A stretch of DNA of 63,318 nt, counting the filler, from Jimgerdemannia flammicorona (taxonomy: Eukaryota): assembly GCA_003990765.1 (NCBI GenBank). It is 3 parts of 3 records of this genome, joined end to end, with 100 filler letters (N's around TTAATTAATTAA, not from the genome) between each part and the next. Parts side by side here need not be neighbours in the genome. Positions count along the whole stretch, not along the records: positions 21,149 to 42,194 come from RBNJ01001545.1; 2 more parts are not named here. One strand, 5' to 3'. Shown here piece by piece: positions 11,463-42,294 of the stretch (its first letter is position 1; each line of letters starts with the position of its first letter). The notes under the pieces were generated by a model that saw only the letters and a list, made by a program, of their open reading frames with translations, was not told the DNA's origin and did not search any database. Made by a program: the position numbers and the translations under genes.

Positions 11463-11470
11463 CTTATATA
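11463..11470 (-). promoter_or_regulatory. TATA box of the BTB gene
   Basis: TATATAAG on the minus strand ~40 bp upstream of the first ATG. Confidence 0.55.

Positions 11471-17707: not shown

Positions 17708-17710
<3 letters not shown>

Positions 17711-17748
<38 letters not shown>
17711..17748 (+). repeat. poly(A) tract followed by (TAAA)n at ~17788-17820
   Basis: A run of ~38 A, with AATAAA ~28 nt upstream. No TSD found. Confidence 0.7.
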
Positions 17749-17750
<2 letters not shown>

Positions 17751-21048: not shown

Positions 21049-21148
21049 NNNNNNNNNNNNNNNNNNNNNNNNNNNNNNNNNNNNNNNNNNNNTTAATTAA
21101 TTAANNNNNNNNNNNNNNNNNNNNNNNNNNNNNNNNNNNNNNNNNNNN
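21049..21148. other. Assembly gap with artificial six-frame-stop linker
   Basis: N44-TTAATTAATTAA-N44, exactly 100 bp. Confidence 0.97.
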
Positions 21149-21173: not shown

Positions 21174-24100
21174 TTGACAGGGGGAGGGGTCAGGTGATGA
21201 GTCAGGTGATGGGTCAGTGCCTGGCAGGAGACAGGGGTCTGGTGGTGTGATACTGGGGACTGGTTCTTCTGTGGCTGGGCAGGTAGCTGGGGAGAGGATG
21301 GCTGGGGAGAGGATGGCTGGTGGCACAGCTGTGTCTGGTGAAATGACTACAGATGTTTTAGGGACCAAAGAAAAGGTGACTCTGGCAGCAGAGACAGGTG
21401 AGTTGGTGGTGAGGCCTTTCTTCCACAAATCGGTTTCAATATGGGTAATCTCAGTGAACTTCCTGGGATTAGTGATATCAGTGAGAGAGGTTCTGAGGCT
21501 GGTGGGAGAGGAAGTGGCTGGGGTGGAATCTCTGAAGTTCATCCCTTCAGCAGAGGCTGTGGAGATTAGATTTGTGGAGGAGGATGCAATGGTGAAGGCA
21601 CTGGAGAAAGGGATGATAGTCAGAGGTATTCAGATTGAGATGGCAAGGTATCTGAGGTGGGATCCATGTGCTGTTTGGCTGGTGGTGGAAGGATTGCCAA
21701 CTCTAGGCAGACAGGAGACCAAGGAGATGATGGTAGAGACACTGGGTGGATATGGTGAGATAGTGGACTTCAGGTTCATGTTCTGGGAGAGCACCAAGTT
21801 GAGGAATGGCAACTGCGAGATAATGCTGCAACTGGAAGGCAAGGAGGCAACTGGGCTGAGACATGACTGGCCTGAGGGAATTAGAATTGGGGGGCAAGAG
21901 TGCAAGGTGTGGAGGAGAAAGAGAGTGAAACAAGAGGAGGAAGAGTTAGCGATTGCTCTGGAGGAGAGAGAGGCTGCCAAGGAGCTGCGAAAGAGGAAGT
22001 GGGAGGAGTATGCCAAGGATTGGGTCTGAATCCAGGCAGATGGCAAGCAGAAGAGGTGGAGGAAAGAGAACTGGGAATGTCTGCAAGTGACCCTTCAAGG
22101 GGCAGCAGTGGAAGAGGAGGCTAGAGTAGAGACAGCCAAGAATCAGATGGAAGGAGTGGAGGCAGTGGAGGTGTCCTTCTCCCAGCTGGGTGGTGTAGAG
22201 AATTCAGTACATACACCAGTGAGAGGAACGTGGGTGGATAAGGAGGAGGTTGGTGAAGGAGGCTTTGAGGTTAATAATGAAGTGATGCCGAAGACTCAGA
22301 TAGAGGATACCCATATGGCTGGGGCAGTGAATGTCCATTGGGAGTGCCCAGAAGCTGGGGAGGTAGTTCATTTGGAGAAAGTGGTGGAGGAGGATGAGCT
22401 GGTGGATGTAGCTTCTGATGTGTCAGCAGATAGGGAGCAACTACAAGAGCTGAGCAGGACCCCCAGGCCCTCGACTCCTGGGCCCCTGGTGATGATGGCA
22501 GAGAGCTGGTATCAGGTGGTGCTTGAGGAGCTGACAGAGGAAGACATCAAGGAAGTGGATGTGTTTCATGGATCTTAGGAGGCATGGGAAGGATTTCTCA
22601 ATGTAGCAATACAGGGGTCTAAGCTGGTGACAGCGATGATAGCCACCCTTCTGGATGATGAAGAATATGAGGTTGATGAGAGCAGGATGGCCAACATCAG
22701 GAAGGTGGCAGCAGAAAGAGTGGACCTTTTCTGCAGCAGTACAAATGAGGATCAAATCTGGAGGGCAATTTGTGAGGACCAGCATGAGATCATTAGAGGA
22801 AGGGCTGAGAAGGTGGTGGTGGTCACAGCTGAGCTTTAAACAATTTTCTTAATATTGATGAACAATCTACATATTTTATTGATCAATGTCAATGGATTGC
22901 AGGATGGTGTTAAAAGATGGTGGCTTTTCAGATGGCTTAAAGTCAGGTGGTATGATGTGGTATTTCTTCAGGATGTTTGGGCTTATGGAGAGTCCGACTA
23001 TGAGATATGGAGTAAAGAATGGTATGGTGGAGCAGGCTGGAATAAGCAGGTTGGCATCTTGGTTGGTGTAGGCAAAGGCGAGCTGGTGGAGGTAGAGATC
23101 TATGGTGACAGATTGATTTGGGGAAGACTAAAAGGAGGGGCAGGTGATAGATTGATAGTTGGCTCAGTTTACCTCTCTGCAGTTGGCAGATAGTGAAAGC
23201 AATGGGTTGAGAGATGGCAGGCATGGGATGGTCGGGAGGTAATTGCTTTGGACATTCTGAGGGAGGACTTCAATATGGTATGTGATTGAATACTGGATAG
23301 GTCTGATGGTGGGGCAGGAGTCATAGTATCCTCTGGACTTTCTCAATGGCTTCAGGTGGAAAGTGACATGGGTTTGATAGATGGCATTCACCAACGACAG
23401 AGGGATAAGTTGGGACCTTTCACCCAGTGGTATCTGGTTGGAACAGTACTGGTTGGGATATGAATAGATTGAGTACTAGTGGCAGAGTGCTGAGGCAATT
23501 TACTGGATACTGCCAAGGTACACTGGTGCCCTTGGTCTGATTACTGGAGAGTGGAGGTTTGCAGTAGATTCCAAGCAGTAGGCAGTGGTAGAGGGTGCTA
23601 GTGCCTCAATATAGCCTTACTCAAGAGGAAGAAGGAGAGGGACAATTTTGTGATGGTTATGAGACAGAAAGTTGTGTGTTGGCAGAATGAAGGGCAGTTG
23701 ATAGTAGAATGGTGGAGTAAATTCAAACATTTGGCTGGTGTGTATTGGTATGATGTTGGAGAAGTAGCTGGGAAGGAACAGAAGGATAAGGAAAGAAGAG
23801 TAGAGAAGAGGCTGAGATGGTGATTGAAGCTTTTGGAAGGGGGGAACTTGTTAGGAGAGGTATGCCACTGATTGGCATCAGAGGTAGTAGAGCTGTAAGC
23901 AGAATTAAGAGTGTCTGAGACCAGAGTGGTAGATGGCCTGCTGGCCAGACTGTGAGCTAGATGGTTGGAAGAAGGAGAGAGGCCGACATGATATCTGTCT
24001 AGTGTTTTGAAGGCTAGAAGAGTACGACATAGTTGGGCCTCAGTATTGTGCAAAGATGGGGTGGAGGTCTCTGGGATTGCTGACATGTTAGGGGAGGTGT

Positions 24101-27100
24101 CCAGTCAGTGGCAAGCTCTTTGGTAGGATGGCAGAGAGCATGCTGAGGATGCCAGGCTTGGGGAGGACAACAACAATATGGTGACCAATTGGCCAGTGAT
24201 AGCGATACCCGAGATAGGAGAGGTGGTCATGGGGGAGGTGTCCCTAGATGAAGTATTAGAAGTACTGAGGAAGATACAGACTGGTTCATCTCCTGGGGAG
24301 GATGGATTGCCCTGGGAATTCTGGAAAGAGTTCAAGACAGAGTTTGGTGACTGGTTGGTGGAGATGGCTAATGCTGTTCTGAAGGAGAGTAGTTGGATTG
24401 GCAATAGTTTCTTGGGGCTAGTTTCTCTTCTATATAAGGAAAAAGGAGATCAATGAGTGTGGCATAATTGGTGACCTATCATGCTGCTGAATGTGGACAG
24501 AAAGTTGGGGTCAAAGATTCTAGTAGAGCAGATGCAGCAGTATGTTGGTGCACTAGTTGGAGAAGAGCAGCGGGGCTTTGTCAAGGGGAGGCAGATCAGA
24601 GATAGTACTGCTTAGGTACAGAATGTCTTAGAGGGCTATAGGAGCTGGCAGGTGGATGGCCAGATGGTCTTTCGGGATCAAGAGAAGGCCTATGACAGAG
24701 TATGGTGGAGCTACCTGGAGGCTGTTCTGAGGAGGGCAGAGTTCGGTATAGTAGAGGTAGAGCAATTGATGGGCTTGGTATGGGGATGCCGAGCAGCAGT
24801 AATGATGAATGGATGGTGTGGACCAGAGTTTGCCTTGGGGCGAGGGGTGCTACAGGGGGATCCTCTCTCCCCCCTTCTCTATGTGCTTTCTCTAGAGTCT
24901 TTGCTGGTGTAGCTGAAGGGGCAGCTTTCTGGACTACAGATGGGAGATGTGGTCTGACAGTTGGGCACTTTTGCAGATAACATAGTGGTAGGATTGGGTA
25001 GTAGGGAGGATGTCGAAGTCCTATAGGAAGGAGTTGGACAGTATGAGAGGCTGGCTGGGGCAAAGTTGAATTGGAACAAGTGTGAGACAATGGAACTTGG
25101 TATCGGCCTGGGGGGACATGGGCAGTTCAGACAATTGGTTGCCACAAGGAGTGCTGTCTGGTATCTGAGTATCTGGTTCTCAGTATATGGGATGGTCCTG
25201 CCAAAGGAGTGGTGGTGTGGATTGATTCAGAAACTGGAAGGTATACTGACAGATTGGTCAGAGAGAAGCTTCTCCTTGGTGGGCAGGATAGTGGTCTTGA
25301 GCAGCAGTTATGATGAATGGATGGAGTGGCCCAGAGTTTGCTTTGGGACACAGTGTACCACAGGGGGATCCTCTCTCCTCCCTCCTTTACATACTCTCTC
25401 TGGAGCCATTGCTGGTATGGCTGAAGGGGTAACTTTCTGGACTGTAAATGGGTGGTATAGTATGGCAACTGGGTGCATTCACAGATAATATAGTGGTTGG
25501 GTTGGGTAGCATAGAAGATGTGGACCTCTTGCAGGAAGGGGTTGAATAGTATGAGAGACTGATAGGGACAAAACTGAACTAGAGCAAGTGTGAGACAATG
25601 GAACTTGGTGCTGGTCTGGGGGAACATGGATAATTTGGACAATTGGTGGCTACTGGTAGTACTGTTCATTATTTTGGTATTTGGTTCTCAATATATGAGA
25701 CAGTCCTGCTGAAGGAGTGGTGGAGTGGCACAATTCAGAAGTTGGAAGGTGCTTTGACTAGTTGGTCTGAGAGGAGTTTCTCCTTGATAGGCAGGATTGT
25801 GATCTTGAATGTATATAGGCTGTCTAAATTATGGTATCTAGGGTATCACTTGGACTTTCTAGGATGGATTGTGCAGTAGCTGAAGAAGATTGTAGAAGGT
25901 AGGTTATAGTGTAGGAAATGGCCACAGATTGGGTGGAATACACTAGTGATGCAGACAATTGATGGCGGCCTGGGGTTGGTGAACTTCAGGTGATGGCTGA
26001 GAGTACTTGGGGGTTGGTGGAGGTGTTGATTGGTGGAGATATATAGGAGAAGGGAGTTAGGGCAGGCTGGTGATAGACAATTGGGAGATTTGGTTCTGCC
26101 CCTATGGTGAGGTTTGGAAGGATATGCAGGATTTGCTTTAGGTTGGAAATATCAGTTGACTGTGGTATAAGGGATTCAGGAGGGGCATGGTGGAGGTCTG
26201 GCTGGCCATGGGGTTGGTAGGGCTGGAGATGGAGGATAGTGAGAATCCTGAGCAGAGATGGTAGCGATTGGGGGACCTCTGTATTGGTGGTCATGGTCTG
26301 AAGGAGTATTTATTGGTTGAGATGATGGAGTGGATCAGGTCTGGCCCTCTGGCGAGATAGCCAGTAGGTTGGCAGAAGACTGGATTGGGTGAAGGCTGGG
26401 AGTGGGGCTGAATCTGGAGTTGGGGAGATACCTTGCTCAAGGTGGTACCCCCTAAGTACTGGGTTGTTTGGTGGTGCTTCTTAAGGAGGAATGTGATGCT
26501 GGAGTATTGGATAGGATGGATGGAGATAGATGGCTGTCAGGACTGTGAGTGGTGTAGTGAGGTAGATGGTGGAGTGGTTCAATTGCCAGAGTATGTTCTG
26601 GCAGTCTGTCCTGGTATAGAAGGGTTCTGGCAATGCTTGGAAGATTACTGGCACTCAGCTGGTAGAAGGACTAGAGATCCTATCAGTCTGGTGGTCAAGC
26701 ACTAGCTGGTGGGGGAAATAGGAGATATCTGGGGAGGACTAAGTCATGTTCTGGGGGTCTGGGTCCTGATGGCAGTACACTGGAGATGGGTGTTTGAGTG
26801 AGACCCATGGTTAGCATTTCCTCCTGAAACTGACCAATATGGAGATAAATATGACTGAGAGCAAGGTGACTGAGAGCAAGGTGACTGAGATCAAGGTGAC
26901 TGTGACCAAGACTGAGGCCAAGGTGGCTACAGCCAAGACTGAGGCCAAGGAGGAGATGAATTATTTCATTTGGTTCAGTGGACTAAGAGATGATGAACAT
27001 TGTGGTGCAGTGGAAACATTGCCTGAATTTATCACCTTTATGGTTCAATGGTTGGACAGCATATCCCACTTCATCAGGATAAAGAAGATGGCCAATATTG

Positions 27101-27414
27101 GTGAATTGTTGCACATGCTTGAGATGTAGCATAATCCAAAAGGTAAAGATTTCATTCTGAAGAGGAAGGACAATGACAAACTTATCCCAATAGATGTCAA
27201 TGATGAGAGCATCACTCTGGAGAAACTTGAAGTCACTCTACAGTAGATCCTTGTTATGGAGCTGGATCTAGAATCTTGAGGTCCCATGTACAGCCGAGGT
27301 GCATCAGTGATCATGTATCAAAATAAATTGTATGCTGTATGGTCGGTTGACCTGGCTTATCAGATAAAAAAAAAAGAGACCCATAGTTAGAGATTGGTGA
27401 GCTGGTGGAGTGAT
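21174..27414 (+). mobile_element. L1/Tx1-type LINE, inactivated (ORF1 to ~22838; ORF2 from ~22858: APE endonuclease, RT, C-terminal Cys motif)
   Basis: Motifs: ILLINVNGLQ..YDVVFLQD, GDFNMV, WSDY(H), SPGEDGLPWEFWK, DQEKAYDRVWW, GVLQGDPLSPLLY, FADN, CQDCEWC..VCP. Many TGA/TAG stops. Preceded by a poly(A) tail (21149-21173) from another insertion. Confidence 0.92.
26815..27375 (+). pseudogene. Processed retrocopy of an unknown mRNA, inserted in the LINE
   Basis: 15-bp TSD GAGACCCAT(G/A)GTTAG at 26800-26814 and 27376-27390. AATAAA at 27322 and A10 at 27366-27375. ORF 26839-27279 has two TAG (<CAG) interruptions. Confidence 0.85.
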
Positions 27415-27449
27415 AGAAGAGGAGGAAGAAGGCCCAGCAGGAGCCAGGG

Positions 27450-28278
27450 TGTAATAACTCTCACTTCTACCCCTCTCTTATCCTTTGGATAATTAGAGAA
27501 GTGGACTATTACTTAGGGACTTAGTACACAATATGTACCAAGAAGCCTTCAGTTTGAGGAAGCACTCACTTATAAGTAGTTGTAGTGGCAGTGCCTTCTG
27601 TTTCAAAGGTCTTTCTCTGGTTTGTCTTCTGTTTCAAAGGTCTTTCTCTGGTGCCCTATTTCAAGGGTCTTGTTCCTTACTGTGCACAGACTGAATTCAC
27701 CTTGAAATTCAGGTTCAATGGGTTTACTTAAGTCTTTGTGATTTGTATACCAGTCTCAGTTCTGGCAGAAGTTAGCTAGGCTTCTGGAGTTTAGTCAGAA
27801 ACACTAAAGTTACTTAGATGTCATTACTAAGACTCAGGGGAATGTGTGTGTGTGGGGGGGGACTTGATTCTTATATCAAGAACTGAACTAAAACTGCTTT
27901 ATTTCAGATGGAAACTAGAGAGTATTTATACAAGTTGGTCTGCAATTTCTGACTAAGTATGAGTGACTAATTTGGTAACTATAATGAGGTTTGTGATTGT
28001 GACCTTTGTCAGGTGGTTTTTGGTAAAGAATAACTTTGTGATCAGGATCTCAATTACTAGACAATAATCAGCAGCTGTAGCAACAGTTGCAGTAGTGCCA
28101 ATTGTTGGGAATAAGCTGGATATCGTTTTTCACATCATTTTTGCATTGTTCAATCATTCATTATTCATTATTCATATGCTATGCTCGATCGTATAATGAT
28201 GTCATCCCTCACTGGGTCACATGATTGCTCATCGCTCATCGCATCCCATCTGTTCACTTGCTCATTCATTCTATTACA
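27450..28278 (-). repeat. Gypsy-2 3' LTR (829 bp)
   Basis: Direct repeat of 35843-36733, with 2 copies of a 31-bp unit. Confidence 0.95.
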
Positions 28279-28289
28279 TCCTTCCCCCC

Positions 28290-29750
28290 TTAGAAATCAA
28301 CGTCCTCATTGATTGAGAAATTGGGAACCAGGGGAGAGAAAGGTGGGGAATCCTGCTCAGGGTTGTTGGCATCTTCTTCAGTAGCAGGAAGGGTGGTGGT
28401 TGCTGATGGCTTGCTGTTCAGGATAGAGAAGTCAATGAGGTCTGCAAATGGTTCTTGTATTGGGATAGGTGCTGGTATAGGGGTTCTCCATCTGATGCAG
28501 TTGGGGCCATCCAAGTAGGGTTCTTGGTCCTCATGCCTGGGAATATCCATTCAGATGGGCAGTCCTTCAAAGAGGTCAGAGAGGTCTTGGAGCCATTGGT
28601 CAGAGTTATCATTTAGGAGGGGGCTCCAGTAGGGTTTGCAGTCAGTGGACTTGAGGGTGATCCAGGAGTTAGCTTCTTGAGCTACCTTGATCTCTAGTTC
28701 ATCAATCTTGAAGAAAGAGAGGTTCTGGAAATCCTTCAGTTGGATATAGTTGAGGTTGGGGATTGCAAAGGGTGCATGGCACATAATTTGATGGACCTTC
28801 TTGGCAAGTCTTTGCTCATTTCTGTCCAGGTGGGTCCAATCAGAGACTTGGTCCATGGGCAGGTTCTTTGCCTGTTGGAGGAGTTGATGGCGAATCTCGT
28901 ATTCATGCCAGATCTCTAGATAGCTGGTGGCAAGGTAGGCTCTTTCGATGACTTCATGGCAGTTGAGGACATAATGTCCTAGGTTCTGACTGGAGAGGTT
29001 AAGGGCCTCTGAGCAGTGGTTCCTTCCTTGGATAGAAACCTGGATGTGTCCAAAGAGGCAGTCAACCTGGCTTGGGAGAGGCCAACTATAGCAGGCAGTT
29101 TGGCAGTAGGTAGCTTGGTTGTGGGTAGCGGGCATTCTTGTCTTATCTTTTCTTTGTAAGGAGAGGGAGATGAGAGTTATGGGGTATTCTTGCCTAGGGT
29201 ATTTATACTTATTCACCCATCTGATGTAATCTTCCTTTGGTCATGCTTTCTGGCAAAATGTATGACCTGTTGCTGTAAGCAGGGCATGTGCTGGTCACAT
29301 GAGGAAATTCTGATTTCAAAGATATTGTCACTTATAGTTGTGGTTACACAGGGTTAACAGGTCTTGGTCCACTCATTTTTTGTCTGATTGGTGCATTTGC
29401 GAGGACTGGCCATCCTTGTCTAGGGTGAGGGCTCCCATTGTCATGGCTGGGGGTTCGAACCTCTTGGAAATAGACTTTTCTTGTAATCTGAGGCAATTCC
29501 TAGTAACAATATCTGTTACATGGATGGACTTAGACTGGTTTCGACAATGTCGGCCTTCCTAAGTTTCATATGAAGCATCCATCATCATCCAGCAGAGATG
29601 GCATGAAATGGAGTTGTTCAAATGTATTTTGCTGTACTATACTAGATTGTTCTTTTGCTCAGGTATCTTCTTGTTGGTTATCCATAGTGTTCCTTTTTCT
29701 GCAATGTTTGGTATTTTATGTTTTCAGATAAAATATATAGTTTCCTTCTG
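28290..29750 (-). pseudogene. Extra sense-strand ORF of Gypsy-2 between pol and PPT, unknown function
   Basis: ORFs 28551-29216 and 28290-28550 share a frame and are separated by one TGA. The frame extends upstream to ~29750 with only TGA/TAG stops. It ends immediately before the PPT. Confidence 0.7.
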
Positions 29751-29770
29751 CTCACTATATGCTCTAATAC

Positions 29771-32700
29771 TTAGAGCTGTAGTTCCTTTCTTTGCTGGGA
29801 GATGAGTGTTTCCATGTAGTCCTGGAGGGCTTCGCATGCATTCTTCAGGGCTTCTTCTTTTTCCCAGGTGGCGTCACGGGTGGGGTAACCCTTCCACTTG
29901 ATCAGGAAAAAACACTTGACTGTTTTGGAATATTTGCAGACCTTGTGGTCAAGTACTTCCTCAATTTCAAATTCCTCATGATCATTGATCCTAATTGGGG
30001 GTAGTGGTGGAACTATATACTCAGGGAATGGGTTCTCATAATAGTCCACCAATTGGCTGATATGGAATACTGGGTGTACTCTGATATTGTGAGGGAGTTG
30101 TAACTTGTAGTTGACTTCACTGATCTTTTCCACAATCTTGTATGGTCCAATTATTCTAGCATAGAGTTTCTTGGCTGGTTGTTGTGCTAGGGTGTCTGAG
30201 TAGAGGTGGTCTGTTCTAAGCATGACTATGTCACCAATATTGTAGGAGACTTCTCTTCGCTTCAAGTTCCCATACTTGGTCAAGTAGTCTTGTGCTTCTA
30301 TGAGAGCATCTCTTGTCATTCAGGTAAGGTCAGAAATGGTCTCAGCCAGATCTTGGGCTACTGGGACTGCTGATTTCACAGTAGTACTCAGGATCCTTGG
30401 GTGTTGACCGTGGTTCAGAAAAAATAGAGTCTTCTTTGTAGAGGTTTGCTGACTATTGTTATAGGCAAACTCAGCATGGGCTAGGTACTTGTCCCAATCA
30501 TTTTGCTTGTAACAGCAGAAGATGCTAAGCATCTGTTTGAGAGTTCTGTTAGTTCGCTAGGTTCGGCCGTCAGTCTGAAGGTGGTAGGCAGTAGAGAACT
30601 TCAGCTTGATTCTATGGAGAGAGAAAAATACCTTTCAGAAGTTGCTTGAAAACTTGGTATCTCAGTCAGATACAATAGTGCTAGGTATGCCATGTAGCCT
30701 GAATACTTAATTGAGGAAAATCTTGGCAATCTCAGGTACTGTAGTGGTAGTCTTAGTGAGTGCAAAATGGGCTTGTTTACTTAGGCAGTCCACGAATACC
30801 ATAATGGCATCCCATCCTGCCTTGGTCTTGGGGAGTTGGACAATGAAGTCCATTGCAATCTGGTCCCAGTTGTGACTCGGGATAGACAAGGGTTGCAGAA
30901 GTCCTACTAATAGCTTGTTACCACTTTTGAACCTTTGACACATCTCACATGAGGCCACAAAGTCTTTGATGTCCTTGGTCATCTTTAGCTAGTAGAACTC
31001 TCTTGAGAGGAGGTTGTAGGTCTTTTCAAAACCAAAGTATCCTGTTGCAGGAGTATTATAGAGTTCCTGCATGATCTTAAGTCACAGAGTATCATTGTTG
31101 AGTACAACCACTCTGTCATGGTCTCTGTAGATAAGTCCATCATGATAGGTGAATCTCTTGGCTATTTGCCTCATGGGTTCTGGAACCTCAGCCTCTGGGT
31201 CTTGGCAGAATTGAAGAAATTTCATCAGGGGACTGTCTTGCTGGTAGCCTTCCTTGATCATCTAGGTGAGGTCTCCAATTATCTCAACCATGAAGACAAG
31301 TTCATCTTCCATATACCTAGAGAAACCATCAGCCACATGGTTGGTTTTGCCTGGGATATACTTGATTTCCATATCAAAGTTGGCAATGATTTCCATCCAG
31401 CAGACTTGTCTGTGGGTCAGCATGGGCTGTGTATGTATATACCACAATACATAATTATCAGTGTAGGCCACAAATGGCTATCCTAGAAGAAAATGGCGCC
31501 ATTCCTGAAGTACAGTGACAATAGCCAGAAGTTCCTTCTCATGAGTGGTATACTGGGTCTCAGCTGGCTTGAGCTTTTGGGAAAGGTAGGCTACTGGGTG
31601 GTCTTCTTGGCTGAGTACTGCTCTAATAGCAATGTCAGAGACATCTGTGGTCAGAGTGAATGGTCTGGTAGGGTCAGGTGCAATTAGCACTGGGGCCTCA
31701 GTAAGGAGTCTCTTGAGATAGTCCATAGCCAGGGTACATTTGGGGGTCCATTTGGTTTTGATGTTCACTCCTTTGTGAGCCAGGCTAGTCAATGGAGCTG
31801 CAATAGCAGAGTATCCTTAGATAAACCTTCAGTAATAACCAGCAATACCCAGAAAGCGCTGGAGTAGCTTGAGGGTAGTAGGGATAGGGATATCCCTAAG
31901 GGCTGATACCTTTTGGAGGTCCACATTGATACCTTCAGCAGAGATGATGTGTTCTAAGTACTCGATCTGGTCTTGATAGAACTTACACTTGCTCATCTTG
32001 GCATAGAGCTGGTGTTCTCGCAGGAGGGTCAGTACTTGTCTGAGGTGAGTGTAGTGTAACTCTACTCTTTCACTGTAGATTAGTATATTGTCAATATACA
32101 CAAGGACACAGATGTTGAGGAGTGGTCCAAAAATATCATTCATCAGATACTGGAATGTTGCTAGTGTATTGGTCAATCCAAAAGGCATGACTCGGAACTG
32201 GTAGTGTCCAAACCATGTTCGGAAAGCTGTCTTCTCAATGTCCTTCTCATCAATGAGAAACTGGTGGTAGCCATTTCGCAAATCCAGTAGAGAAAAGGTC
32301 TTGGCCATGAAGATTTGGTATAGCAACTCGTCAATCCTAGGTAAGGTATACCATTTCTTGATGGTGATCTTGTTGAGGGCTCTGTAGTCAATACACATTT
32401 GCAGAGAGCCATCCTTCTTCTTGACAAATAGAATGAGGGCTCCAGATGGAGAGCAGCTGGGTTCAATATATCCTTGGGCCAGTAGTTTTGTCAATTTATC
32501 CTTGAGGGTCTTGAGCTCAGGTTGGGCCAGTTGGTAGATACTCTTGTATGGGGGTTCAGATCCTGGAATAAGATCAATTCCATGTTGGATTTGGCACTTA
32601 GGTGGAAGTCCTTGGGGATCTTGGAATACATCTTGGAATTCTTCAAACAGTTCTTAAGCTTCTGTTGGGATTGGGCTACTTATAGCTTCAGTGACTTCTT

Positions 32701-33125
32701 GTACCATACAAATAAAGTAGATATTTCCCTTTTTTCGAGAGAGTCTCTTCATTTGAATGGTAGAGATGATTTCGATTCCTTGGTGGTTGGTACCTTCCTG
32801 GGGTGTCAGGGTGATCTTTCTGCCTTCATGGGTCAGGTTAACCTTGTTGGTTCTCCAGTTGATGTCTGGGTTGTGCTGGGTCAACCAGGCTTTTCCTAAG
32901 ATAATATTTTGTCCTGGGAGGTCTACAATGCTGAAGTCCAACTTCTCTTGATATTTGCCAATCTTGAGCAAAAGATCTTTGCAGATCTTGGTCAATGGTG
33001 CTGTTTATTCATCACCAAAGGTAACACTTCTTTTCTCAGTGGTTGGTCTGCTTTGGGCTCCAATTCTCTTGGCGGTCTTGGTGCTGATATAGTTTCCAGT
33101 AGCACCACCATCAAGCAAGACATTG
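29771..33125 (-). pseudogene. Gypsy-2 pol: protease, RT, RNase H, integrase, chromodomain
   Basis: ORF fragments 32654-32995, 31829-32494, 31478-31792, 30707-30982, 30320-30532 and 29771-30319 carry canonical motifs. Confidence 0.93.
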
Positions 33126-33487
33126 ACATTCTATCTGTGAACTTGGCCTGTGAACTTGATGCAACTGTCCTCTTTCTTAATGGAATTGAGCTCTTCATCT
33201 TCATTGTTGTCCCAATTGCTATCAGTCTCCTCGAAGTCAGTTTCTCCCCATCCTTCACAAGGAGGGATGTCTTGTTTGGGTTCCTCAGTCTGTTGAGCTT
33301 GGCGTTTCTCAGATTGAATTTTGAAAACTTTGGAGAGGCATACATGGCATTCACCAATATGTTCCATGCAGTACATTTGAATGGAATGAGGGCATTGTCC
33401 ACATGGTGCATAACTATCTGCAATTCTCTTGTACCAGTTTTCATCATCTTCCTTCATGGTAGTGACCTTTGGACTGGGGGGTTTGTT

Positions 33488-33903
33488 GGTTGATCCAAAC
33501 CCTTTCTTGCCATGGTCTGTCTGGGAAAATTCAGGGACTTCTTCAATAGTGAGATCTTGATGGATTTCTTCAATGATTGCTTGGGCAATTCTTTGGCCTG
33601 TTTTGACTTCAAATGATGTGTCTCCAAAATTTCACAAGATGATATGGATTTCACTAGTAAATCCTTGGTCAACTACTCCTCCTCCTAGCCCAATGTTGAA
33701 CTCTTTGGCTAGGCTGCTTCATTCAGCAAGGCAGATGTATGTACCTTTGGGAGCTTGCATTGCAATCCCTGTTTGCACTGTAGCATTGGTACTTGGTGGA
33801 ATAGTGAGGTCTTGGCTGCTGTAGAGATCATATCCAGCATCAGTTGGGTGGGCCTTAGTGGGGATGGTAGCCTTGAACCATATCTTCTGTACTTTGATGA
33901 CAT
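33488..33903 (-). pseudogene. Gypsy-2 dUTPase
   Basis: AGYDLYS, TGIAMQAP, E*SSLA (RSSLA), GGVVDQGFTSEI, RIAQAI, HGKKGFGST. Confidence 0.92.
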
Positions 33904-33949
33904 TTTTGGAGTTTTTCTTTCCTGAACCTTCTCCAATGACAATAATGTT

Positions 33950-35820
33950 CTGGTTACTGGGTTCGCCTGTTCTGTTCTTCTTCTCAGGGCATCTGAATGA
34001 GATGTGTCCTGCCTTCTTGCAGATGGAGCACAATCCTTTTTCACAGAGCTGCTTCTTTTCATCCTTGGTGGGAGGTCTGGGTCCTCTGGGATTTCGCTGG
34101 TTCCTTTGATCATTCCATTGATCATATCTTTGGTCATTCCTTTGATCATTTCTCCTGGTAGGATTCCTCCTATCTTGGTTATCCTTCTTGTGTTCTTGAT
34201 TTTATGGAGCTTGTGCAGCAAGGATTTTGCATGCTCTTCTTTGTACTTGGACAAAGCATCATGAGTAGTAGGGACATCCTTGGGGAAGACCTTGTTCCCT
34301 GATCTTCTGGGTGAGCCAGTCTGGTAGGGCTACAAAGAGATAGTTGGCTCTAGTACCATTGATGGCCAAATTGTTTTCCTGGTAGGTAAGTCCAACAATT
34401 TTGAGATAGGCATCCATTCTGGTGGCAAAGGTCTCTAGATTCTCTTTGCTATTCTTATAGAACTTCATCTGGGACAGTTTGTTCCAAGTTTCTTGCATGT
34501 AGGCCACATTTTGGAATTTGGTCAGTAGCAAGGCCTTGAGTCCTGGGCCTGCTTCATAGTCATCCCAACCTGGTCTATTGTTGGCAGATACTTGTCTAAT
34601 GACTTGGGGGCAGGCTTCCCAGGTTACTGGATATTGTTCCAGAGTGTGCCAGAATTCGGCTGCTGTTCCTGTGAAGAATGTGGCTACTGTTTCCACTTGT
34701 GCTGCTGATGTGGCAAACAGTTGTTGAAGGGTGCTATTCTAGTTGTTTGTGAGCATTCCTATGGGCACTCGGTTGTCATTCCATTGGTTTGCTCGGTAGC
34801 CTGTGTCAACTGCATTGATAAAGTTTTCAATGTTGCTGTTTTTTTTACTAAATGTTGGAATTCGCAGAGTCTTGGTTGGTTTGTTCTGTTCAGCAATCTG
34901 TCCTACTATCTCTGCTGGTACTGCTAGCTGGGTAGTCAGTGCTGTAATATTGGCATCTATCATTGTGTTGACTATTGGTGGTGGGCCTGTTGGGATAGAT
35001 TCTTCTGAAGATTGTTCTGCTTAGTGGGATTGTGGTGCTGTATGACTTGGAGTTACTTGATTCCCGGATATTAAGTCAAAGAGTCCTGTGAGAGAGGGTA
35101 GACCAAATCTCTGTATAGATGGCTGAGTTGGTTCTGGGGTCTGTTCTTCTTGACCTGTGGTTCCTTGGTAAATTCCTAGGCCTGCTGTTTCTTGTTGGCT
35201 ATCATCAGACTGGTAACCTGTAGAGTCTTTGTCTGACTCCCTTCTCTGATGAGATAGTATGTCCTCATACTGACTAGGTCCTTCAAAGAGGATATCAGTC
35301 TCTGGCTGAGTAGATGGGCCTGCTCCTTGTTCAGCAGTAGGGGATGGGTGGCTTGCTTGCTCATTTTTGTACCTAGTTATAGCAGAGGCATAGTATACAA
35401 CTAGTCTGTAGTAGAGGGAGGTCTTGGTAGGGGTATGATGATATCTGTCAGAGGCAATCCACTCAGCAGCTACTTCTCTTGCAGCAGAGGGTGTGATATA
35501 ATCTAGAAAATCCTGAGTGGCTGCAGCAGTAGATTCTGGGGTCCTAGTGGTTCCAATGTATTCTCGGAGGAGTTCGTAGAACCTACAGCAGCTGACAATA
35601 TTCCTAAGTCCTGGGTGGTATGTCCTAAAGGCCTGATATAGATCCTTGTAAGCCTGGTCAATTACAAGCTGGTGGGTCCTTGGGTCTGTGGTTTCCTGGT
35701 ACCACCTGGTCCTAATGGCAAGGGCTTCTTTGGAGATCTACAGTTGATTCTGAGGGTTACTCCTGTCCAAGGTTGGTCTTGTTCCAACTTCAGGAGTGTG
35801 TTCTTTGGTGCCTTTTTGGC
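33950..35820 (-). pseudogene. Gypsy-2 gag with long N-terminal extension
   Basis: MIDANITALTTQLA at 34963, capsid-like ORF 34259-34696, zinc knuckle at ~34030-33990. The frame stays open upstream to the PBS apart from isolated TAG/TAA stops. Confidence 0.8.
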
Positions 35821-35842
35821 TGGTAATCCACTGCTATCAAGT

Positions 35843-36733
35843 TGTAATAACTCTCACTTCTACTCCTCTCTTATCCTTTGGATAATTAGGGAAGTGGACT
35901 ATTACTTAGGGACTTAGTATACAATGTATACCAAGAAGCCTTCAGTTTGAGGAAGCACTCACTTATAAGTAGTTGTAGCAGCAGTGCCTTCTGTTTCAAA
36001 CGTCTTTCTCTGGTTTGCCTTCTGTTTCAAAGTTCTTTCTCTGGTTTGTCTTCTGTTTCAAAGGTCTTTCTCTGGTTTGCCTTCTGTTTCAAAGGTCTTT
36101 CTCTAGTGCCCTATTTCGAGGGTCTTGTTCCTTGCTGTGCACAGACTGAATTCACCTTGGAATTCAGGTTCAATGGATTTACTTAAGTCTTTGTGATTTG
36201 TATACCAGTCTCAGTTTTGGCAGAAGTTAGCTAGGCTTCTGGAGTTTAGTCAGAAACACTAGACTCACTTAGATGTCATTACTAAGACTCAGGGGAATGT
36301 GTGTATGTGGGGGGGAACTTGATTCTTATATCAAGGACTGAACTAAAACTACTTTATTTCAGATGGAAACTGGGGGGTATTTATACAAGTTGGTCTGCAA
36401 TTTCTGACTAAGTATGAGTGACTAATTTGGTAACTATAATGAGGTTTGTGATCATGACCTTTGTTAAGTGGTTTTTGGTAAAGAATAACTTTGTGATCAG
36501 GACCTCAATTACTAGGCAATGATCAGTAGCTGTGGCAACAGTTGCTGTAGTGCTGATTATTGGGGATAAGCTGGATATTGTTTTTCACATCATTTTCACA
36601 TCATTCGTTCATTTGTCATTCATTATTCATATGCCATGCTCAATTGTATGATGATGTCATTGCTTGCCAGGTTACATGATCACTCATCACTCATCGCATC
36701 CAATTTGTTCACTTGCTCATTCATTCTATTACA
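35843..36733 (-). repeat. Gypsy-2 5' LTR (891 bp)
   Basis: Direct repeat of 27450-28278, with 4 copies of the 31-bp unit. Adjacent to the PBS at ~35828-35839. Confidence 0.95.
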
Positions 36734-37030
36734 CAGGGGAGCAAACTCAGAACCAGTGTCAAAGCAAACAGAAGATATGTGGAAAAGTATGTATAAGGGA
36801 GATGAACAAAGAACATAACCAAAAATGCATCAGCCATTTATTGCTACATAAAAATGTAGTCCTTATATACAAAATATGATATCCCAAAAGGGAGGATGCA
36901 TCACAACTTGGGGTGAACTGAATTAGGAATCACATGATCACCAGAGATAAGCAGAGATAAAGAGAGAGCCAATCCCAGTTACAGGATAAAAATCACAAAC
37001 AAACACAAACAAAACAAATCCAAATCAAGA

Positions 37031-37207
37031 TTATAAAACATCTGCAGACCCTGGAGGGGTGAGCATGAGCAAGGGGTGAGGCTGAAATGGAGTAAGCTGC
37101 AGTGAGCCCGAGTGAAGCAAGGGACTGAAGACAGCAGAGGGGAGTGGAGTAAGGCTGAGCCCCCGGAGCGAGTGCAAGACCCCAGAGGGGATAAGGATGT
37201 TTTTTAA
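37031..37207. repeat. 177-bp TIR-bounded hairpin cassette, copy A (part of PLE 3' pLTR)
   Basis: TTATAAAACATC...GATGTTTTTTAA, colinear with 40641-40817. Confidence 0.85.
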
Positions 37208-37299
37208 TCCTCTCCAGCAGAGCTGGAGGTACCAGAAGGTGACAAAAATGCAAAATGAGAGTGATGGATTAAAGAAGAAACAGAAGGAAGATGCAAACA

Positions 37300-39100
37300 A
37301 GCAATCAGAGGGCATTGAGAAAGAGATGAAAGTCCATGGTGGGAAAGAGAAGAGCACAGGATGGTATCAGGGCATTGAGTGGCCTAGCAAGCATGATCAA
37401 ATGGTATGATGAGAATTGGGGTGGGAAAGAAGAGGGGGTATGGAGAGGGTAAGGGGGGAGAGAGGGAAGAGAGGGGGGGTAAAGAGGAGAGAGAAGGGAA
37501 GAGTGAACAACAGACCATTCAATAAAAGCAAGCAGGTCACAAATGATAGAAATTGGGAATGCATAACAATGGACCATGAAGTTGCTGAGAACCTGAACAG
37601 CAGACACCCAATTGGAGTAACAGGAGCAGCATAATACAAGATGACAAGCCTTACCATGAACATATTCAAGAAGAGTGCAATGAGAATGGTTAGACAAGAA
37701 GTCAGGGAACTGTTTGGAACATGGAAAATGAGAATAAACAATAGTTCGAAAGAGAGAATGAGAAATGGAAAGGTCCAAAAAGAGAATACTAGTTGTACCT
37801 CACACTCAGGTAATAGAGTAGTGGGGAGGGTAGATGCTCAGAAACACACTAGGGATATCGATGCCAGCAATAGCAAAGACAATAAAGTCATTGATGTATT
37901 GGTAAAGAAGATATCCCCAGCCCGGAATGCAATAGAAAGAGGTGAAGAGAGATCACATATTGCATGAAGTTCATGGGCCAGGCCAATGAGGTTGGCAAGG
38001 ATGGGGGTACAATTCGTTCCCATGGCAATACCAGAGGTCTGGTGAAACAAGCCAAGGACTGACTCAAAATAATTAGAGCCACAGATAAGGAGCGTAAGCT
38101 CAACAATGGAAGCCAATGAGACTGAGGAATCCAAAGGAAAAATAATAGAACCCAGGAAATGAAGGCAATCATCGATCTCATCAAAACAAATAGTAGTATA
38201 GAAGGAGGAAAAATCACCAGAGGTCAAATGGGAAAAATGGTGAACAGGTACAATGGTGGAGCAGAGAAGGGCAAGCTCCTGAGTATCATAAAGAATAGTA
38301 TACTCAGGCCCAAGACAGTGTTGTAGAAGAGCCATCTAGAAGAGGAAGAAGCAGGATAACTACTTCAAAATCTTGGTGATAGGGGAACTATAAGCAGCTA
38401 TAATGGGACATCAAGCTAAAGTAGGCTTGTGAACTTTAGGAAGGGTATAGAAAACTGGAAGACAAATGTCCGGGGAGGACAAAGAGTCCTGGAAGAAGTT
38501 AAAAACAGAGTTTGTGAATAGAGAATCCGAAAGCAATCTGGCATGGGCCAGAGAAACCCAAAGAAGAGTGAGAATCTCATCTAATCCAAGAGCACTAGGT
38601 TCATAAGCCATGGCTCGAAGGAGAGCAGAAAGGCCATCAAGGTAGAGCAACTTAGAAATAAGCATAAAACCTTGATTCTTATCAGTGACTGTGAGCAAAT
38701 GCATAGGCAATTGCTTGACCAATTTAAGCATGGTATGTATGGCATGGTCCAAAACTAAGCAAGAGCGAGTGCATCCAGGAATAGACAGTGAGCAAGCCAT
38801 GTCGAGGAATATGTAGTATGAAGAGACATTGGAAGGTGGGATCCAATCACTGGGAACAAAATAGCAAGAGGGAATCTCACCATAATCTTTAAAGAAGATG
38901 GTAAGGTCAAGAGTATGACGAAAATGTGTGAGACAAGCTGGATCAGTGGAGGAAAATTGTGAGGGAGTTACAGGAAAAATGAAGCAAGGACCCAAGGATG
39001 AGGCAAAGACTTGAAGGGGAGACAAAAGTGTTCGAAGAGAAGAATAAACCCAAAAGTTCAGGATAAGCAACTGGGAAAGATGAAGGGAGGACAACATGAG
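37300..39100 (-). pseudogene. Penelope-type reverse transcriptase (no endonuclease)
   Basis: SSLGPCFIFP, TDKNQGFMLI, FYTLPKVHKP..*CPII, SGDFSSFYTTI, FHQTSGIAMGTNCTPILANL, YQYINDF (CpG-decayed YRYIDDF), and a thumb region DLSI..RTIVY..SNHS. Confidence 0.88.
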
Positions 39101-39173
39101 GAACTAACCAGAAGCGATGACAGAATCTGAGAAGGGACAGGGACACCAGGGGAGAACTATGCTAGGGGGAAGT

Positions 39174-40400
39174 TTAAGAGTGAGAGGCCTTCCCCTTCCC
39201 TCTGACTTTTTTTGAAGGTGGCGAATCCATTGAATGGGAGCACACCCCATTAGAGTGCCAGACCTTGCAGCCACAGGCTTTCATATAGCCCTTACATTCA
39301 GTGGCACAGGTGGAGGAGGTGGAGAAGGAACCGGCAGAGGAGGAGGCTAAAGGTGAGCAAGTGGCTGAAGGGGCAGCAGAGCAAGGAACACCACCATGAG
39401 GACAGATGGACTTGGCCGGGTGCCAGTAGGTATGGTAGAGGTGATCAGAGCAGACAGCACAAGGCCAGGCCCCGATGGGACGAGAACTATTGGCAGTCAT
39501 ACTTGGGGGCAGGGGGAATGGAGGAGGAAGCCTTGGCAGGGGAGAGAGACTGGGAAGAGGCTGATGAAGTCTGGTTGAGCTTGGCAGAGGTCTTGGCAGG
39601 GGTCTTGGAGGGAGCCTTAGCAGTGGTGGCAGTGAAGGAACAGACCTCAGCATGGGCAGCAGTATGAGCTTTGGCATGAATGGCCTTGGAGACCAAAACC
39701 TCAGGGAAGGCAGACAGGAGAGTAGTGGTGGCAGCGCAAGCAGCAGCGGTAGCATGTGATGTCTCCTGCTCATGAAGGTGAGAGACAAAAGAAGTGCCAG
39801 CAAGGAGGAAGTAACATACAGCATCAATATCGGTGGTGACAGAAGGAACCTCATAGATAGCAAAGCCACAGAAGAGGGCAGCATCCAAAAGGTGGGAGGA
39901 GGTGAAGGCCACAAAGGTGGCACAGGCATGGTGGAAGGAGGCGGAAGTGGTGGTGGCAGAAACAGAAGCAGCATCAGCAGCGGCAAGCTTGGTGGTGGTA
40001 GTAGTGGTATGAATCTCTTCAGAGAGAGCTTGGCAGCAGGCTTCAGGGAGAACAGAGTAATGAATAGTGGGCGGAGTGATGATGTCAACATCATGGCAGA
40101 GACAAGCCTCCTTGGCAGAGAGAGCAAGAACCGACTGGAACTAGAGAGGAGCGGATGACCAGAAGGACGAAGGTCCAGGGGGAGGGAAAGGATAGCAGAT
40201 GAGATGTAGGTCTCAAATGAGACAGTGGCAGGGGTGAAGGCAGGGGGAGGAGGAGGAAGAACCTTGTCCATGAGCTCATCGATGAGGATGGAGGCCCCGA
40301 AGGCAGGCAGTACAGCAGAGGAGGAAGAAGGCCCAGTGGGAGCCAGGGGAGCAAACCCAGAACCAGTGGCAAAGTAAACAGAAGATATGTGGAAAAGCAT
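39174..40400 (-). pseudogene. PLE ORF1 (Pro/Ser/Ala-rich, C-terminal Cys/His clusters), probably frameshifted or intron-containing
   Basis: 408-codon frame starting inside the pLTR, with motifs CAVCSDHLYHTYWHPAKSICPH and CGCKVWHSNGVCSH. The overlapping frame 39487-39912 is more protein-like centrally. Confidence 0.6.
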
Positions 40401-40817
40401 GTATAAGGAGAATGAACAAGGAATATAACTGAAAATGCATCAGCCATTTATTGCCATGTAAAAATGCAGTCCTTATATACAAAATATGACATCCCAAAAG
40501 GGAGGATACACCACAACTCGGGGTGAACTGAATTAGAAACCACATGACCACTGAAGATAAGCAGAAATAAAGGGAGAGCCAATCCCAGTTACAGGATAAA
40601 AATCACAAACAAACACAAATAAAACAAATCCAAATCAAGATTAAAAAACATCTGCAGACCCCAGAGGGGTGAGCATGAGCAAGGGATGAGGCCAAAATGG
40701 AGTGAGCTGCAGCAAGCCTGAGCAAAGCAAGAGGCTGAAGGCAGCGGAGGGGAGCAGAGTAAGGCTGAGACCCCAGAGCGAGCACAAGACCCCAGAGGGG
40801 GCAAGGATGTTTTTTAA
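40318..40817 (-). repeat. PLE 5' pLTR including hairpin cassette copy B (40641-40817)
   Basis: Direct repeat of 27415-27449 plus 36739-37207. Overlaps the ORF1 start. Confidence 0.88.
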
Positions 40818-41798
40818 TCTCAATTTGGATTTATTTTGTTTGTGTTTATTTGTGATTTTTATCCTGCAACTGAGATTGGCTCTCTCTTTATCTCTGCTTA
40901 TCTCTGGCAGTCATGTAGTTCCTAATTTGGTTCGCCCCGAGTTGTGGTGTATCCTCCCTTTTGGGATGTCATATTTTGTATATAAGGACCATGTTTTTAT
41001 ATGACAATAAACGGCTGATGCATTTTCGGTTATATTCTTTGTTCATCCCCCTTATATACACTTTTCTACATATCTTCCATTTGCTTTGACACTGGTTCTG
41101 AGTTCGCTCCCCTAGCTCTTGCTGGGCCTTCTTCCTCCTCTTTTAATCTTGATTTCGATTTGTTTTATTTGTGTTTGTTTGTGATTTTTATCCTACAACT
41201 GGGATTGGCTCTCCCTTTATCTCTGCTTATCTCTGGCAGTCATGTGGTTTCTAATTCGGTTTGCCCCAAGTTGTGGCATGTCCTCATCATATTTTGTATA
41301 TAAGGACTGCATTTTTACATGGTAATAAATGGCTGATGTATTTTCAGTTACATACATTCTTTGTTCATCCCCCTTATATATGTTTTTCCACATATCTTCC
41401 ATTCAATTTAACACTGGTTCTGGGTTCACTCCCCTGGCTCTTGCTGGGCCTTCTTCCTCCTCTTTTTAATCTCGATTTGGATTTGTTTTATTTGTATTTG
41501 TTTGTGATTTTTATCCTGCAACTGGGATTGGCTCTCTCTTTATCTCCACTTATCTCCGGCAGTCATGTGGTTTCTAATTTGGTTCACCCTGAGTTGTGGC
41601 ACATCCTCCCTTTGGGACATTATATTTTGTATATAAGGACTGCGTTTTTATGTGGCAATAAACAGCTGATGCATTTTTGGTTACATTCTTTGTTCATCCC
41701 CCTTATACATGCTTTTCTACATAACTTCCATTCACTTTGACACTGGTTCTGGGTTTGCTCTCCTGACTCCCACTGGGCCTTCTTCCTTCTCTTCTTAA
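40818..41798 (+). repeat. Three tandem inverted copies (~325 bp) of the pLTR body
   Basis: Units 40818-41146, 41147-41469 and 41470-41798 are each the reverse complement of 40318-40640, joined by TTTTAA. Confidence 0.92.
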
Positions 41799-41989
41799 CC
41801 TTCTAAGGGCTTGAACCACTCAGAGAGAACTAAGCCACACAAACACCTTTCAGTGAAAGACAACATGTTTACAAGTTTTTATTTCGAAAAAACTAGTGTA
41901 CATCATGTGGCAAGAGTCTATCTATAAGGAATAACAAGTTTCAGAGAAAACTGTTGAGTTTTGGCAATATAACTAGTCAAAGTTCCTCT

Positions 41990-42194
41990 AGCTCTGAGTG
42001 TCTGGAGAGAAGGAGGCCAGGTCTGGGGATTCTCAAGAGCTTTGCAGCTGTTACAGGGGTTGATATAGCAGCAGGAATGGTGGAGTAGAAGGTTGGCATA
42101 CTATGGTTGGGGGCAGGAGGGTGGCAGCCAGGCCCTTGGGGGTAGGGCAGGGGGGGTATAGTATTGACAGTCAGGTAGCTGGAAGAGGACAGGG
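41990..42194 (+). mobile_element. Probable LINE 3' fragment
   Basis: G-rich, CpG-free composition like the LINE ORF2 ends at 26700-26800 and 63100-63318. No diagnostic motif. Confidence 0.35.
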
Positions 42195-42294
42195 NNNNNN
42201 NNNNNNNNNNNNNNNNNNNNNNNNNNNNNNNNNNNNNNTTAATTAATTAANNNNNNNNNNNNNNNNNNNNNNNNNNNNNNNNNNNNNNNNNNNN
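42195..42294. other. Assembly gap with artificial six-frame-stop linker
   Basis: N44-TTAATTAATTAA-N44. Confidence 0.97.

Follow-up and report, generated by a model that had tools for sequence, protein, structure and literature searches.

A hairpin-forming pseudo-LTR segment lies at the inversion point of an apparently endonuclease-less Penelope-like element in Jimgerdemannia flammicorona

We analyzed a 63,318-nt stretch of the genome of the fungus Jimgerdemannia flammicorona (GenBank assembly GCA_003990765.1; hereafter the window), which carries a decayed Penelope-like element (PLE) whose pseudo-long terminal repeats (pseudo-LTRs) begin with a 181-bp hairpin-forming cassette. The window consists of three contigs (1–21048, 21149–42194, and 42295–63318) joined by artificial spacers of the form N44-TTAATTAATTAA-N44 (N runs at 21049–21148 and 42195–42294), and features are not readable across the joins. 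The cassette locus is on the middle contig, whose end is 400 bp away. The reverse transcriptase (RT) is read on the minus strand, and in this sense the composite consists of three inverted repeat units (U), cassette B, U, the open reading frame (ORF) region, cassette A, and U, with the following components.

37029–37209, minus strand: cassette copy A, 181 bp, the 5′ segment of the downstream (3′) pseudo-LTR
40639–40819, minus strand: cassette copy B, the 5′ hairpin-forming segment of the upstream pseudo-LTR, at the palindrome apex
37029–37042, 37196–37209, 40639–40652, and 40806–40819, no strand assigned: 14-nt inverted-repeat arms, located by sequence search of the window
40820–41800, plus strand: three tandem cassette-less 329-bp U units, inverted relative to the RT, from a tandem-repeat call
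40317–40638, minus strand: U body (40344–40638) and 27-nt terminal segment (40317–40343) of the upstream pseudo-LTR, in the left palindrome arm
37210–40316, minus strand: internal region of ~3.1 kb with a decayed RT-only ORF, from translation and alignment
36734–37028, minus strand: U body of the 3′ pseudo-LTR, broken at 36733/36734 by a nested LTR retrotransposon
27412–27449, minus strand: last ~32 nt of the 3′ pseudo-LTR (27418–27449) and a 6-nt motif remnant, beyond the nested element

An earlier note on this stretch had described a cassette bounded by inverted repeats of ~14 bp at the 5′ end of both pseudo-LTRs. The two bounded copies were borne out and all four arms located, although the coordinates first given fell 2 nt short at either end. 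Both cassettes stand at the RT-sense 5′ end of direct repeats (36734–37209, continued at 27418–27449, and 40317–40819), the pseudo-LTR measuring ~505 bp, and the arms of each are separated by 153 nt. At ≤ 2 mismatches the arm sequence has four sites in 63 kb versus 0.87 expected by chance, and because these matches are confined to the cassette arms, the cassette is delimited at 181 bp. The window holds two copies, with neither a third nor a solo cassette anywhere across its 63 kb. Copy A starts ~35 nt past the end of RT ORF homology and has both arms with no inverted unit adjoining; the inverted repeat therefore belongs to the 3′ region of the element itself and is no product of palindrome formation.

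Copies A and B are 86.7% identical, differing at 24 of 181 positions, 22 of them by transitions. Six of the differences are TG(A)/CA(B) pairs, a kind of difference that the earlier note had observed, and at three further sites one copy retains CG. Reading these differences as CpG decay is reasonable given the low CpG observed/expected ratio of contigs 2 and 3 (0.08–0.40 in 3-kb bins over 21001–60000); the ratio is ~1.1 in the gene-bearing part of contig 1. The direction of the pairs also varies along the pseudo-LTR: all six in the cassette have TG in A and CA in B, compared with none of this kind and three CA(A)/TG(B) pairs in the U body. This opposition could have arisen by chance or through deamination biased by strand at the palindrome apex.

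Copy B lies at the centre of a palindrome, as had been claimed. The palindrome arms (40317–40652 and 40806–41141) are 336 nt long, 87% complementary, and 153 nt apart, and they enter the cassette by 14 nt from each side, placing the head-to-head junction at the cassette's terminal inverted repeat. Direct pseudo-LTRs accompanied by an adjoining inverted, 5′-truncated copy are typical of PLEs, and the palindromic junction is of the type seen in the rotifer Adineta vaga. The inverted units run from 41798 down to 40820 (period 329, 3.0 copies, 83% matches), so that the inverted arm is U-U-U and mirrors the direct arm (U-ORF) no further than 329 bp. All five U copies are 84–89% alike in all 10 pairwise comparisons, with differences that are nearly all transitions, and such star-like divergence would fit formation in one event. 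An assembly fold-back artefact would have produced identical arms; given the observed divergence, the arms are old and real. A terminal segment of 27–34 nt is carried by all five U units, including the 3′ unit split by the nested element, and with the 3′ end itself found at 27418–27449, a one-sided Penelope tail of 30–40 bp was ruled out. No long flank duplication surrounds the composite.

The joints share a short motif. Each cassette-less U unit starts with TTTTTAATC, the same 9 nt that stand at the outer end of the cassette's 3′ arm, and the cassette's 5′ arm is the reverse complement of this motif plus five more bases. At the two tandem U-U joints the terminal segment is followed by TTTTAATC or TTTTTAATC, whereas in the upstream pseudo-LTR it leads directly into the ORF region. 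At one outer end of the composite the terminal segment is followed by a degenerate TTTTTAATC-like motif, TTCTTAACC (41792–41800), and at the other by TTCTATC (27412–27417, minus strand); a degenerate version of the motif may thus stand at both outer ends, a likeness that we treat as soft. Head-to-tail joints, the head-to-head joint, and perhaps the termini share this one short motif.

The RT ORF is decayed, with four stops in the 422-codon stretch translated and an alignment to its best relative that crosses three reading frames. It retains LPKVHK, TDKNQG (DKN), GDFSSFY, and SGIAMGT (GIAMG), and has GPCF where the related protein P0003 has GPKF and the ORF of metagenome locus L005 (see below) has GKF. 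DKG/DKN, GxKF/Y, and RT1 motifs recognise PLEs, Coprina included (PMC8557442; PMC13159263; statements on published work here and below refer to parts of the cited papers). From its DKN and LPKxHK motifs, with GPCF at the GxKF/Y position, the element is probably Penelope-like, and the pseudo-LTR architecture agrees with this assignment, already made in the earlier note. An exhaustive HMMER search with the window RT gave 670 matches at E ≤ 0.001, the best being the metagenomic protein P0002 (47% identity, E = 3.5e-36). Named relatives include Racocetra fulgida CAG8787539.1 and a Gigaspora margarita protein, and the closest of them belong to Glomeromycotina fungi; a host of Mucoromycota type is probable, provided that all three contigs come from one genome. 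The nearest Atlas clusters comprise RT proteins, mostly from Rotifera and Basidiomycota, with HTH_animal/DUF8422/RVT_1. A word-indexed search with the 165-aa RT core against longer proteins only returned no match at E ≤ 0.001, and P0154 matched no PDB sequence at E ≤ 0.1.

No endonuclease was detected in the window ORFs or in the RT relatives, in keeping with what had been proposed. Eight relatives of 384–1123 aa matched RVT_1 alone at E ≤ 0.01, and P0001, P0002, and P0003 matched no Pfam family; the Penelope-like ORFs in the window had no Pfam match either, including the 421-aa N-terminal frame at E ≤ 1. Homology to P0002 runs to residue 404 of 406, which aligns to 37246, ~35 nt before cassette A, and so leaves no room for a C-terminal endonuclease. 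We regard the element as probably endonuclease-less, decay limiting how far this holds for the window copy itself. An Rfam scan of 36500–42194 returned no hammerhead at E ≤ 10 and no relevant family, in a decayed copy and with models that minimal PLE hammerheads may escape; the window likewise has no TTAGGG dimer at ≤ 1 mismatch, a motif that may not be the host telomere repeat. Since both would be expected in Coprina/Athena, the element is not assignable to that group without a phylogeny.

A second RT-only family shows the same architecture. JGI metagenome contigs searched with a three-protein alignment yielded 42 loci encoding distant RTs (22–31% identical to P0002), none of them similar to the window element at the DNA level. 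Eleven of the 42 form one family (L004, L005, L021, L023, L029, L030, L035, L036, L038, L039, and L040), with RTs 24–27% identical to that of the window. Its hairpin measures 126 bp, with arms of 35–36 nt and a spacer of 54–56 nt (consensus 36/54/36); the first arm begins inside the TAG stop codon of the ORF, and the hairpin begins both pseudo-LTRs. All 15 hairpin copies at the 11 loci lie downstream of the RT in the same orientation, in a sample that was picked for RT and is therefore biased and uninformative on solo copies. The ORF of L005 is intact (985 aa) and matched RVT_1 alone at E ≤ 0.01, with no GIY-YIG at E ≤ 1. No hammerhead at E ≤ 5 and no relevant Rfam family was found in L005, L001, L004, or L030.

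L021 and L023 represent the same locus (98% identical), and the distinct loci with an upstream pseudo-LTR are L005, L021, and L029. The earlier note had suggested comparing inversion breakpoints with the hairpin across copies; in this family they fall at the hairpin in three of three distinct loci, where it forms the apex of the palindrome of inverted and direct pseudo-LTR. Flanks differ among the loci.

L005: left palindrome arm 128–540, right arm 597–1009
L021: left palindrome arm 6205–7445, right arm 7508–8748, within a larger palindrome at 5262–9688
L029: left palindrome arm 7198–7621, right arm 7678–8101

The inverted arm in L005 and L029 ends at, or no more than ~10 nt from, the element's 3′ terminus (...CAACTTTTCCC). 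Such a terminus also lies no more than ~10 nt from each outer end of the composite in these two loci and in the window, as would be expected if each arm began as a separately primed complementary DNA (cDNA). In all four loci (window, L005, L021, and L029) loop and ORF-bearing arm share one orientation. The anatomy, the microhomology at all joints, and the recurrence of the architecture in a second family are direct observations.

This recurrence bears on the origin of the cassette. The cassette has terminal inverted repeats, and TTAA is readable at both its ends (within GATTAA and TTAATC), as it would be in an independent foldback or miniature inverted-repeat (MITE-type) DNA transposon that had inserted at TTAA in an ancestral element and was then copied along with it. 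The 14-nt arms, however, are flanked by CAA and CTC with no target-site duplication; insertion at TTAA would leave less of the arm than the TTTT(T)AATC present in the cassette-less U units; and solo copies are lacking in the window. A sequence-unrelated hairpin also occupies the same place in all 15 copies of the distant family, biased as that sample is. Such an independent transposon, which the earlier note had set against its own account, is highly improbable as the source.

The earlier note had further proposed that the cassette interior holds GNA-triloop mini-hairpins. We defined these as GNA triloops closed by C:G with a stem of ≥ 2 bp. The extant copies A and B contain none on either strand. 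When CpGs were restored solely at sites where the copies themselves show TG/CA or CG, two appeared, a GGA loop with a 5-bp stem (CCCC-GGA-GGGG) and one exact GCGAAGC, both on the plus strand and none on the minus strand. These are motifs that had been named from direct restoration, but their number does not exceed chance: dinucleotide shuffles of the 153-nt core contain on average 0.43–0.46 mini-hairpins, with P(≥ 2) = 0.068–0.071. Allowing one further assumed CpG per motif raised the count to 4–5 versus 1.1–1.3 in like-treated shuffles (P = 0.02 and 0.0055), a liberal count for a motif picked post hoc, with two CCCC..GGGG boxes that do not vary independently of each other. At this level GCC-GAA-GGC and the second CCCC-GGA-GGGG were reproduced, whereas GC-GGA-GC is unreachable by single restoration. 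The CCCC..GGGG boxes lie 6 and 5 nt inside the arms and pair together in predicted folds, lengthening the long stem.

With DNA parameters the restored cassette gave z = −2.1 (plus) and −1.75 (minus), compared with 0.02 and −0.13 for the restored core without its 14-nt arms. The core alone folds no better than shuffles, and the structure signal is therefore that of the inverted repeat. Nearest-neighbour parameters may undervalue GNA triloops, which is why motifs were counted as well. Among extant copies, z was −2.4 and −1.5 for plus-strand DNA, and −3.8 (copy B) and −1.6 (copy A) for sense RNA, where the arms close the structure. Mini-hairpins are not established at this locus and, by strict count, are not significantly enriched.

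GCGNAGC mini-hairpins are described as extraordinarily stable (PMC13037366), and the one exact GCGAAGC after restoration is what the cassette has in common with the d(GNA) class (PMC13037366, PMC3201870); it differs in that the motif is missing from extant copies, strict enrichment is absent, and none was seen in the second family, where the alignment was inspected by eye for GNA hairpins with stems of ≥ 2 bp and no count was made. We judge it distinctly unlikely that such structures in first-strand cDNA stabilise its end while snap-back through the inverted repeat self-primes the second strand. The plus-strand confinement of the restored motifs, the liberal count, the known stability, the direct loop orientation in four of four loci, and the long mirrored arm of L021, which resembles fold-back copying, would all suit this idea; it has to contend with zero extant mini-hairpins and a strict P of ~0.07, with a core that shows no excess folding energy (z ~0), with boxes that pair with each other as a stem extension, with the second-family hairpin just mentioned, and with a window inverted arm that reads U-U-U rather than mirroring U-ORF.

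The RNA folds raise another alternative, in which the hairpin acts mainly as RNA (for RT binding or recognition of the 3′ untranslated region, as a terminator, or as a small-RNA precursor) and inversion is a by-product of RT stalling. The sense-RNA z-scores, with the arms closing the structure, and a hairpin directly after the stop codon in both families are compatible with this, as is a generic microRNA-precursor-like stem in the second-family hairpin, which scores 34.8 bits against a gathering score of 120. No Rfam family reaches threshold, however, the stem lacks covariation, and an RNA role alone leaves the 9-nt motif shared with the tandem joints unexplained. Taken by itself we consider it very unlikely, while noting that it overlaps the explanation favoured below and does not exclude it.

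On balance, and with modest confidence, we think it probable that the cassette is a native hairpin-forming 5′ pseudo-LTR segment of an old, CpG-decayed, endonuclease-less PLE, the arms marking the point at which cDNA stops or switches and is joined. Reverse transcription would repeatedly have ended or switched template at the 14-nt arms or the U start. If a cDNA then had the complement of the U start at its 3′ end, it could have transferred to another RNA whose 3′ end matched, which would yield head-to-tail U-U joints. Alternatively, such a cDNA might anneal to a second cDNA fresh from copying the cassette 5′ arm, or to itself, which would yield a head-to-head joint with the cassette as its loop. 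The inverted repeat would be the working part and the interior a spacer, and GNA mini-hairpins would need no role. We infer, rather than observe, that the joints arose in the course of reverse transcription, and likewise the identity of the annealing strands. In the window, two cDNAs converging and annealing at their 3′ ends seem to us likelier than one cDNA snapping back, because the inverted arm is U-U-U, its units end at the 9-nt motif, and the outer ends resemble termini. The snap-back self-priming model of the earlier note is in accord with a junction at the inverted repeat, but in pure form it fits a U-U-U inverted arm poorly.

A more specific version, which we hold tentatively and regard as doubtful, is that the post-stop hairpin is a dedicated cis element allowing an endonuclease-less element to insert at double-strand breaks. 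Each broken end would prime a cDNA on element RNA; the two antisense cDNAs could pair solely if the RNA carried an inverted repeat, so that the hairpin arms would bridge the break. The layout of inverted pseudo-LTR, hairpin, pseudo-LTR, and ORF would then be obligatory, with the 9-nt motif guiding head-to-tail jumps.

Short inverted repeats are known to provoke template switching and fold-back repair, and the composite might have arisen after insertion at the DNA level, by a replication template switch or fold-back repair at a hairpin-prone repeat with retrotransposition uninvolved. A junction within 9–14 nt of inverted microhomology, and an L021 palindrome that extends to 2.2 kb per arm, beyond the pseudo-LTR, are what such events could leave. 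We nevertheless consider this origin unlikely: the inverted arms of the window, L005, and L029 stop at the element's 3′ terminus or close to it, as expected of primed cDNA but not of DNA duplication, which could be of any length; recurrence at three independent second-family loci would be required; and divergence is about equal among all five U copies of the window.

Several points weigh against a native hairpin at which cDNAs stop and join. The window holds a single locus of the element's family, and a 22-mer common to both cassette copies has no match in the metagenome or genome contig collections. All copies are dead, so activity, RNA ends, and RT pausing are unreadable from sequence, and a DNA-level rearrangement at a hairpin-prone site is possible. 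In L021 the inverted arm passes the pseudo-LTR by ~1.8 kb into the ORF, a layout that two separately primed cDNAs explain less well than does fold-back copying or inverted duplication at the DNA level; for this reason both annealing routes may occur. Selection on stem structure is not demonstrated, since the second-family stem shows no covariation (92.6% of cells pair, one of 36 pairs is changed on both sides, and shuffles do as well), and its copies simply represent decay from a perfect stem. Beyond the second family the hairpin is not a general feature. There, ~11 loci are evaluable in having a long ORF, a stop, and 3′ flank; an inverted repeat of ≥ 14 nt lies close to the stop in two of these (L001 and L003), and in seven no repeat is found at an 8-nt seed.

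The nearest published parallel comes from endonuclease-bearing Penelope elements of A. vaga, where palindromes of 18 and 38 bp occur at pseudo-LTR 5′ ends and inverted and direct pseudo-LTRs share a 15-bp overlap (Arkhipova, Yushenova, Rodriguez 2013, Mob DNA 4:19; PMC3846280). Consistent palindromes at the inverted pseudo-LTR junction are best read there as self-priming (PMC3846280), and the core of the fold-back idea in the earlier note was accordingly already in print, while the junction anatomy described here supports it. The two systems are alike in the inverted repeat at the pseudo-LTR 5′ end, the extent of overlap (~15 bp there, 14 bp here), an inverted copy shorter than the direct one, and the proposal of self-priming. 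They differ in that the A. vaga elements are animal and carry GIY-YIG, whereas no endonuclease was found here and the relatives are fungal or metagenomic, and in hairpin geometry, with palindromes of 18–38 bp compared with 14-nt arms around a 153-nt spacer in the window and 35–36-nt arms around 54–56 nt in the second family.

A pseudo-LTR formed by partial tandem duplication, an adjacent inverted 5′-truncated copy, and a tail together constitute the canonical PLE architecture (Craig et al. 2021, PMC8557442). The window element matches it in its direct pseudo-LTRs, upstream inverted copy, and head-to-tail multicopy short units, and departs from it in having no hammerhead found, no one-sided 30–40-bp tail, and no endonuclease. 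With Coprina/Athena (PMC8557442; PMC13159263) it has in common an RT-only ORF, the DKN motif, the thumb, and fungal relatives, and direct repeats can flank Coprina-1_Alen. Those elements are telomeric and bear reverse-complement telomeric repeats and hammerheads, whereas the window shows neither TTAGGG dimer nor hammerhead; inverted pseudo-LTRs or hairpins are not mentioned for them in the relevant parts of PMC8557442 and PMC13159263. Purified Penelope-like protein has been shown in vitro to cut both strands of its target and to extend them (Frangieh et al. 2024, PMC11167929), which makes two converging cDNAs plausible for endonuclease-bearing elements. We compared the arrangement with one further retroelement process.

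In LINE-1 twin priming, two converging cDNAs form on opposite target strands and the inversion is joined at microhomology. This process would likewise give an inverted/direct arrangement. LINE-1 junctions, however, are variable and rely on chance microhomology, unlike the built-in inverted repeat found here at one and the same position in every locus seen.

A full-text search for Penelope-like, self-priming, and palindrome found all three together only in PMC3846280, and we found no description of hairpins of this kind in endonuclease-deficient elements in the parts of the literature covered, supplements aside. Fungal and protist endonuclease-deficient elements are said not to share the Penelope-type repeat organisation (PMC3846280), a published claim that the present finding qualifies. 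What is new is the presence, in two families without detectable endonuclease, of a long-spacer hairpin that starts at the stop codon and forms an invariant apex, together with, in the window, one 9-nt motif common to tandem and inverted joints. A fold-back role of the inverted repeat is supported by this comparative anatomy and anticipated in the literature. The way in which PLEs come by their tandem and inverted repeats is recognised as an open question (PMC8557442), and two sequence-unrelated families with a hairpin at one common position, which in every case is where they invert, offer a short defined element for in vitro RT assays. For annotation, the arrangement explains why such loci resemble foldback transposons or assembly artefacts.

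The element that interrupts the 3′ pseudo-LTR is a further retrotransposon.

27450–36733, no strand assigned: nested Ty3/gypsy chromovirus, with LTRs at 27450–28278 and 35843–36733 that are 86% identical

Its ends are TG..CA, the 5-bp sequence CAGGG is duplicated at 27445–27449 and 36734–36738, and chromo, SH3_Tf2-1, and RVT_1 domains are encoded. The divergence of its LTRs resembles that of the pseudo-LTRs. A 31-bp tandem repeat (3.9 copies, 35985–36104) lies within its right LTR.

Among the metagenome loci, the L029 composite is flanked by 440-bp direct repeats (6761–7200 and 11823–12262, 90% identical), which could be a very long target duplication or reflect insertion into a repeat. The second-family 3′ terminus, ...CAACTTTTCCC, is reiterated two to three times in steps of 39–63 nt (L021, 11543–11727; L029, 11741–11824), a pattern suggestive of template slippage or repeated initiation there. 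L001 is a distant RT-only element with an intact 980-aa frame, flanked by arrays of a ~147-bp tandem repeat (1–303 and 4319–5057), and has a 14-nt inverted repeat 33 nt past its stop (3898–3911 / 3962–3975).

Elsewhere in the window, AT-rich blocks on contig 1 (1–6000 and 18001–21000; GC 23–30%, CpG observed/expected 0.00–0.21, raised TpA) flank a gene region at 6001–18000 where CpG observed/expected is ~0.9–1.2. Contigs 2 and 3 show another pattern, TpG/CpA-rich CpG decay, and the blocks look like the outcome of a different mutational regime. GC skew is very strong (0.35–0.47) over several kb at 22001–28000 and 58001–62000. None of 12 short ORFs from contig 1 matched a Pfam family. Contig 1 also carries a BTB ORF whose closest protein is from Endogone sp. 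(48%).

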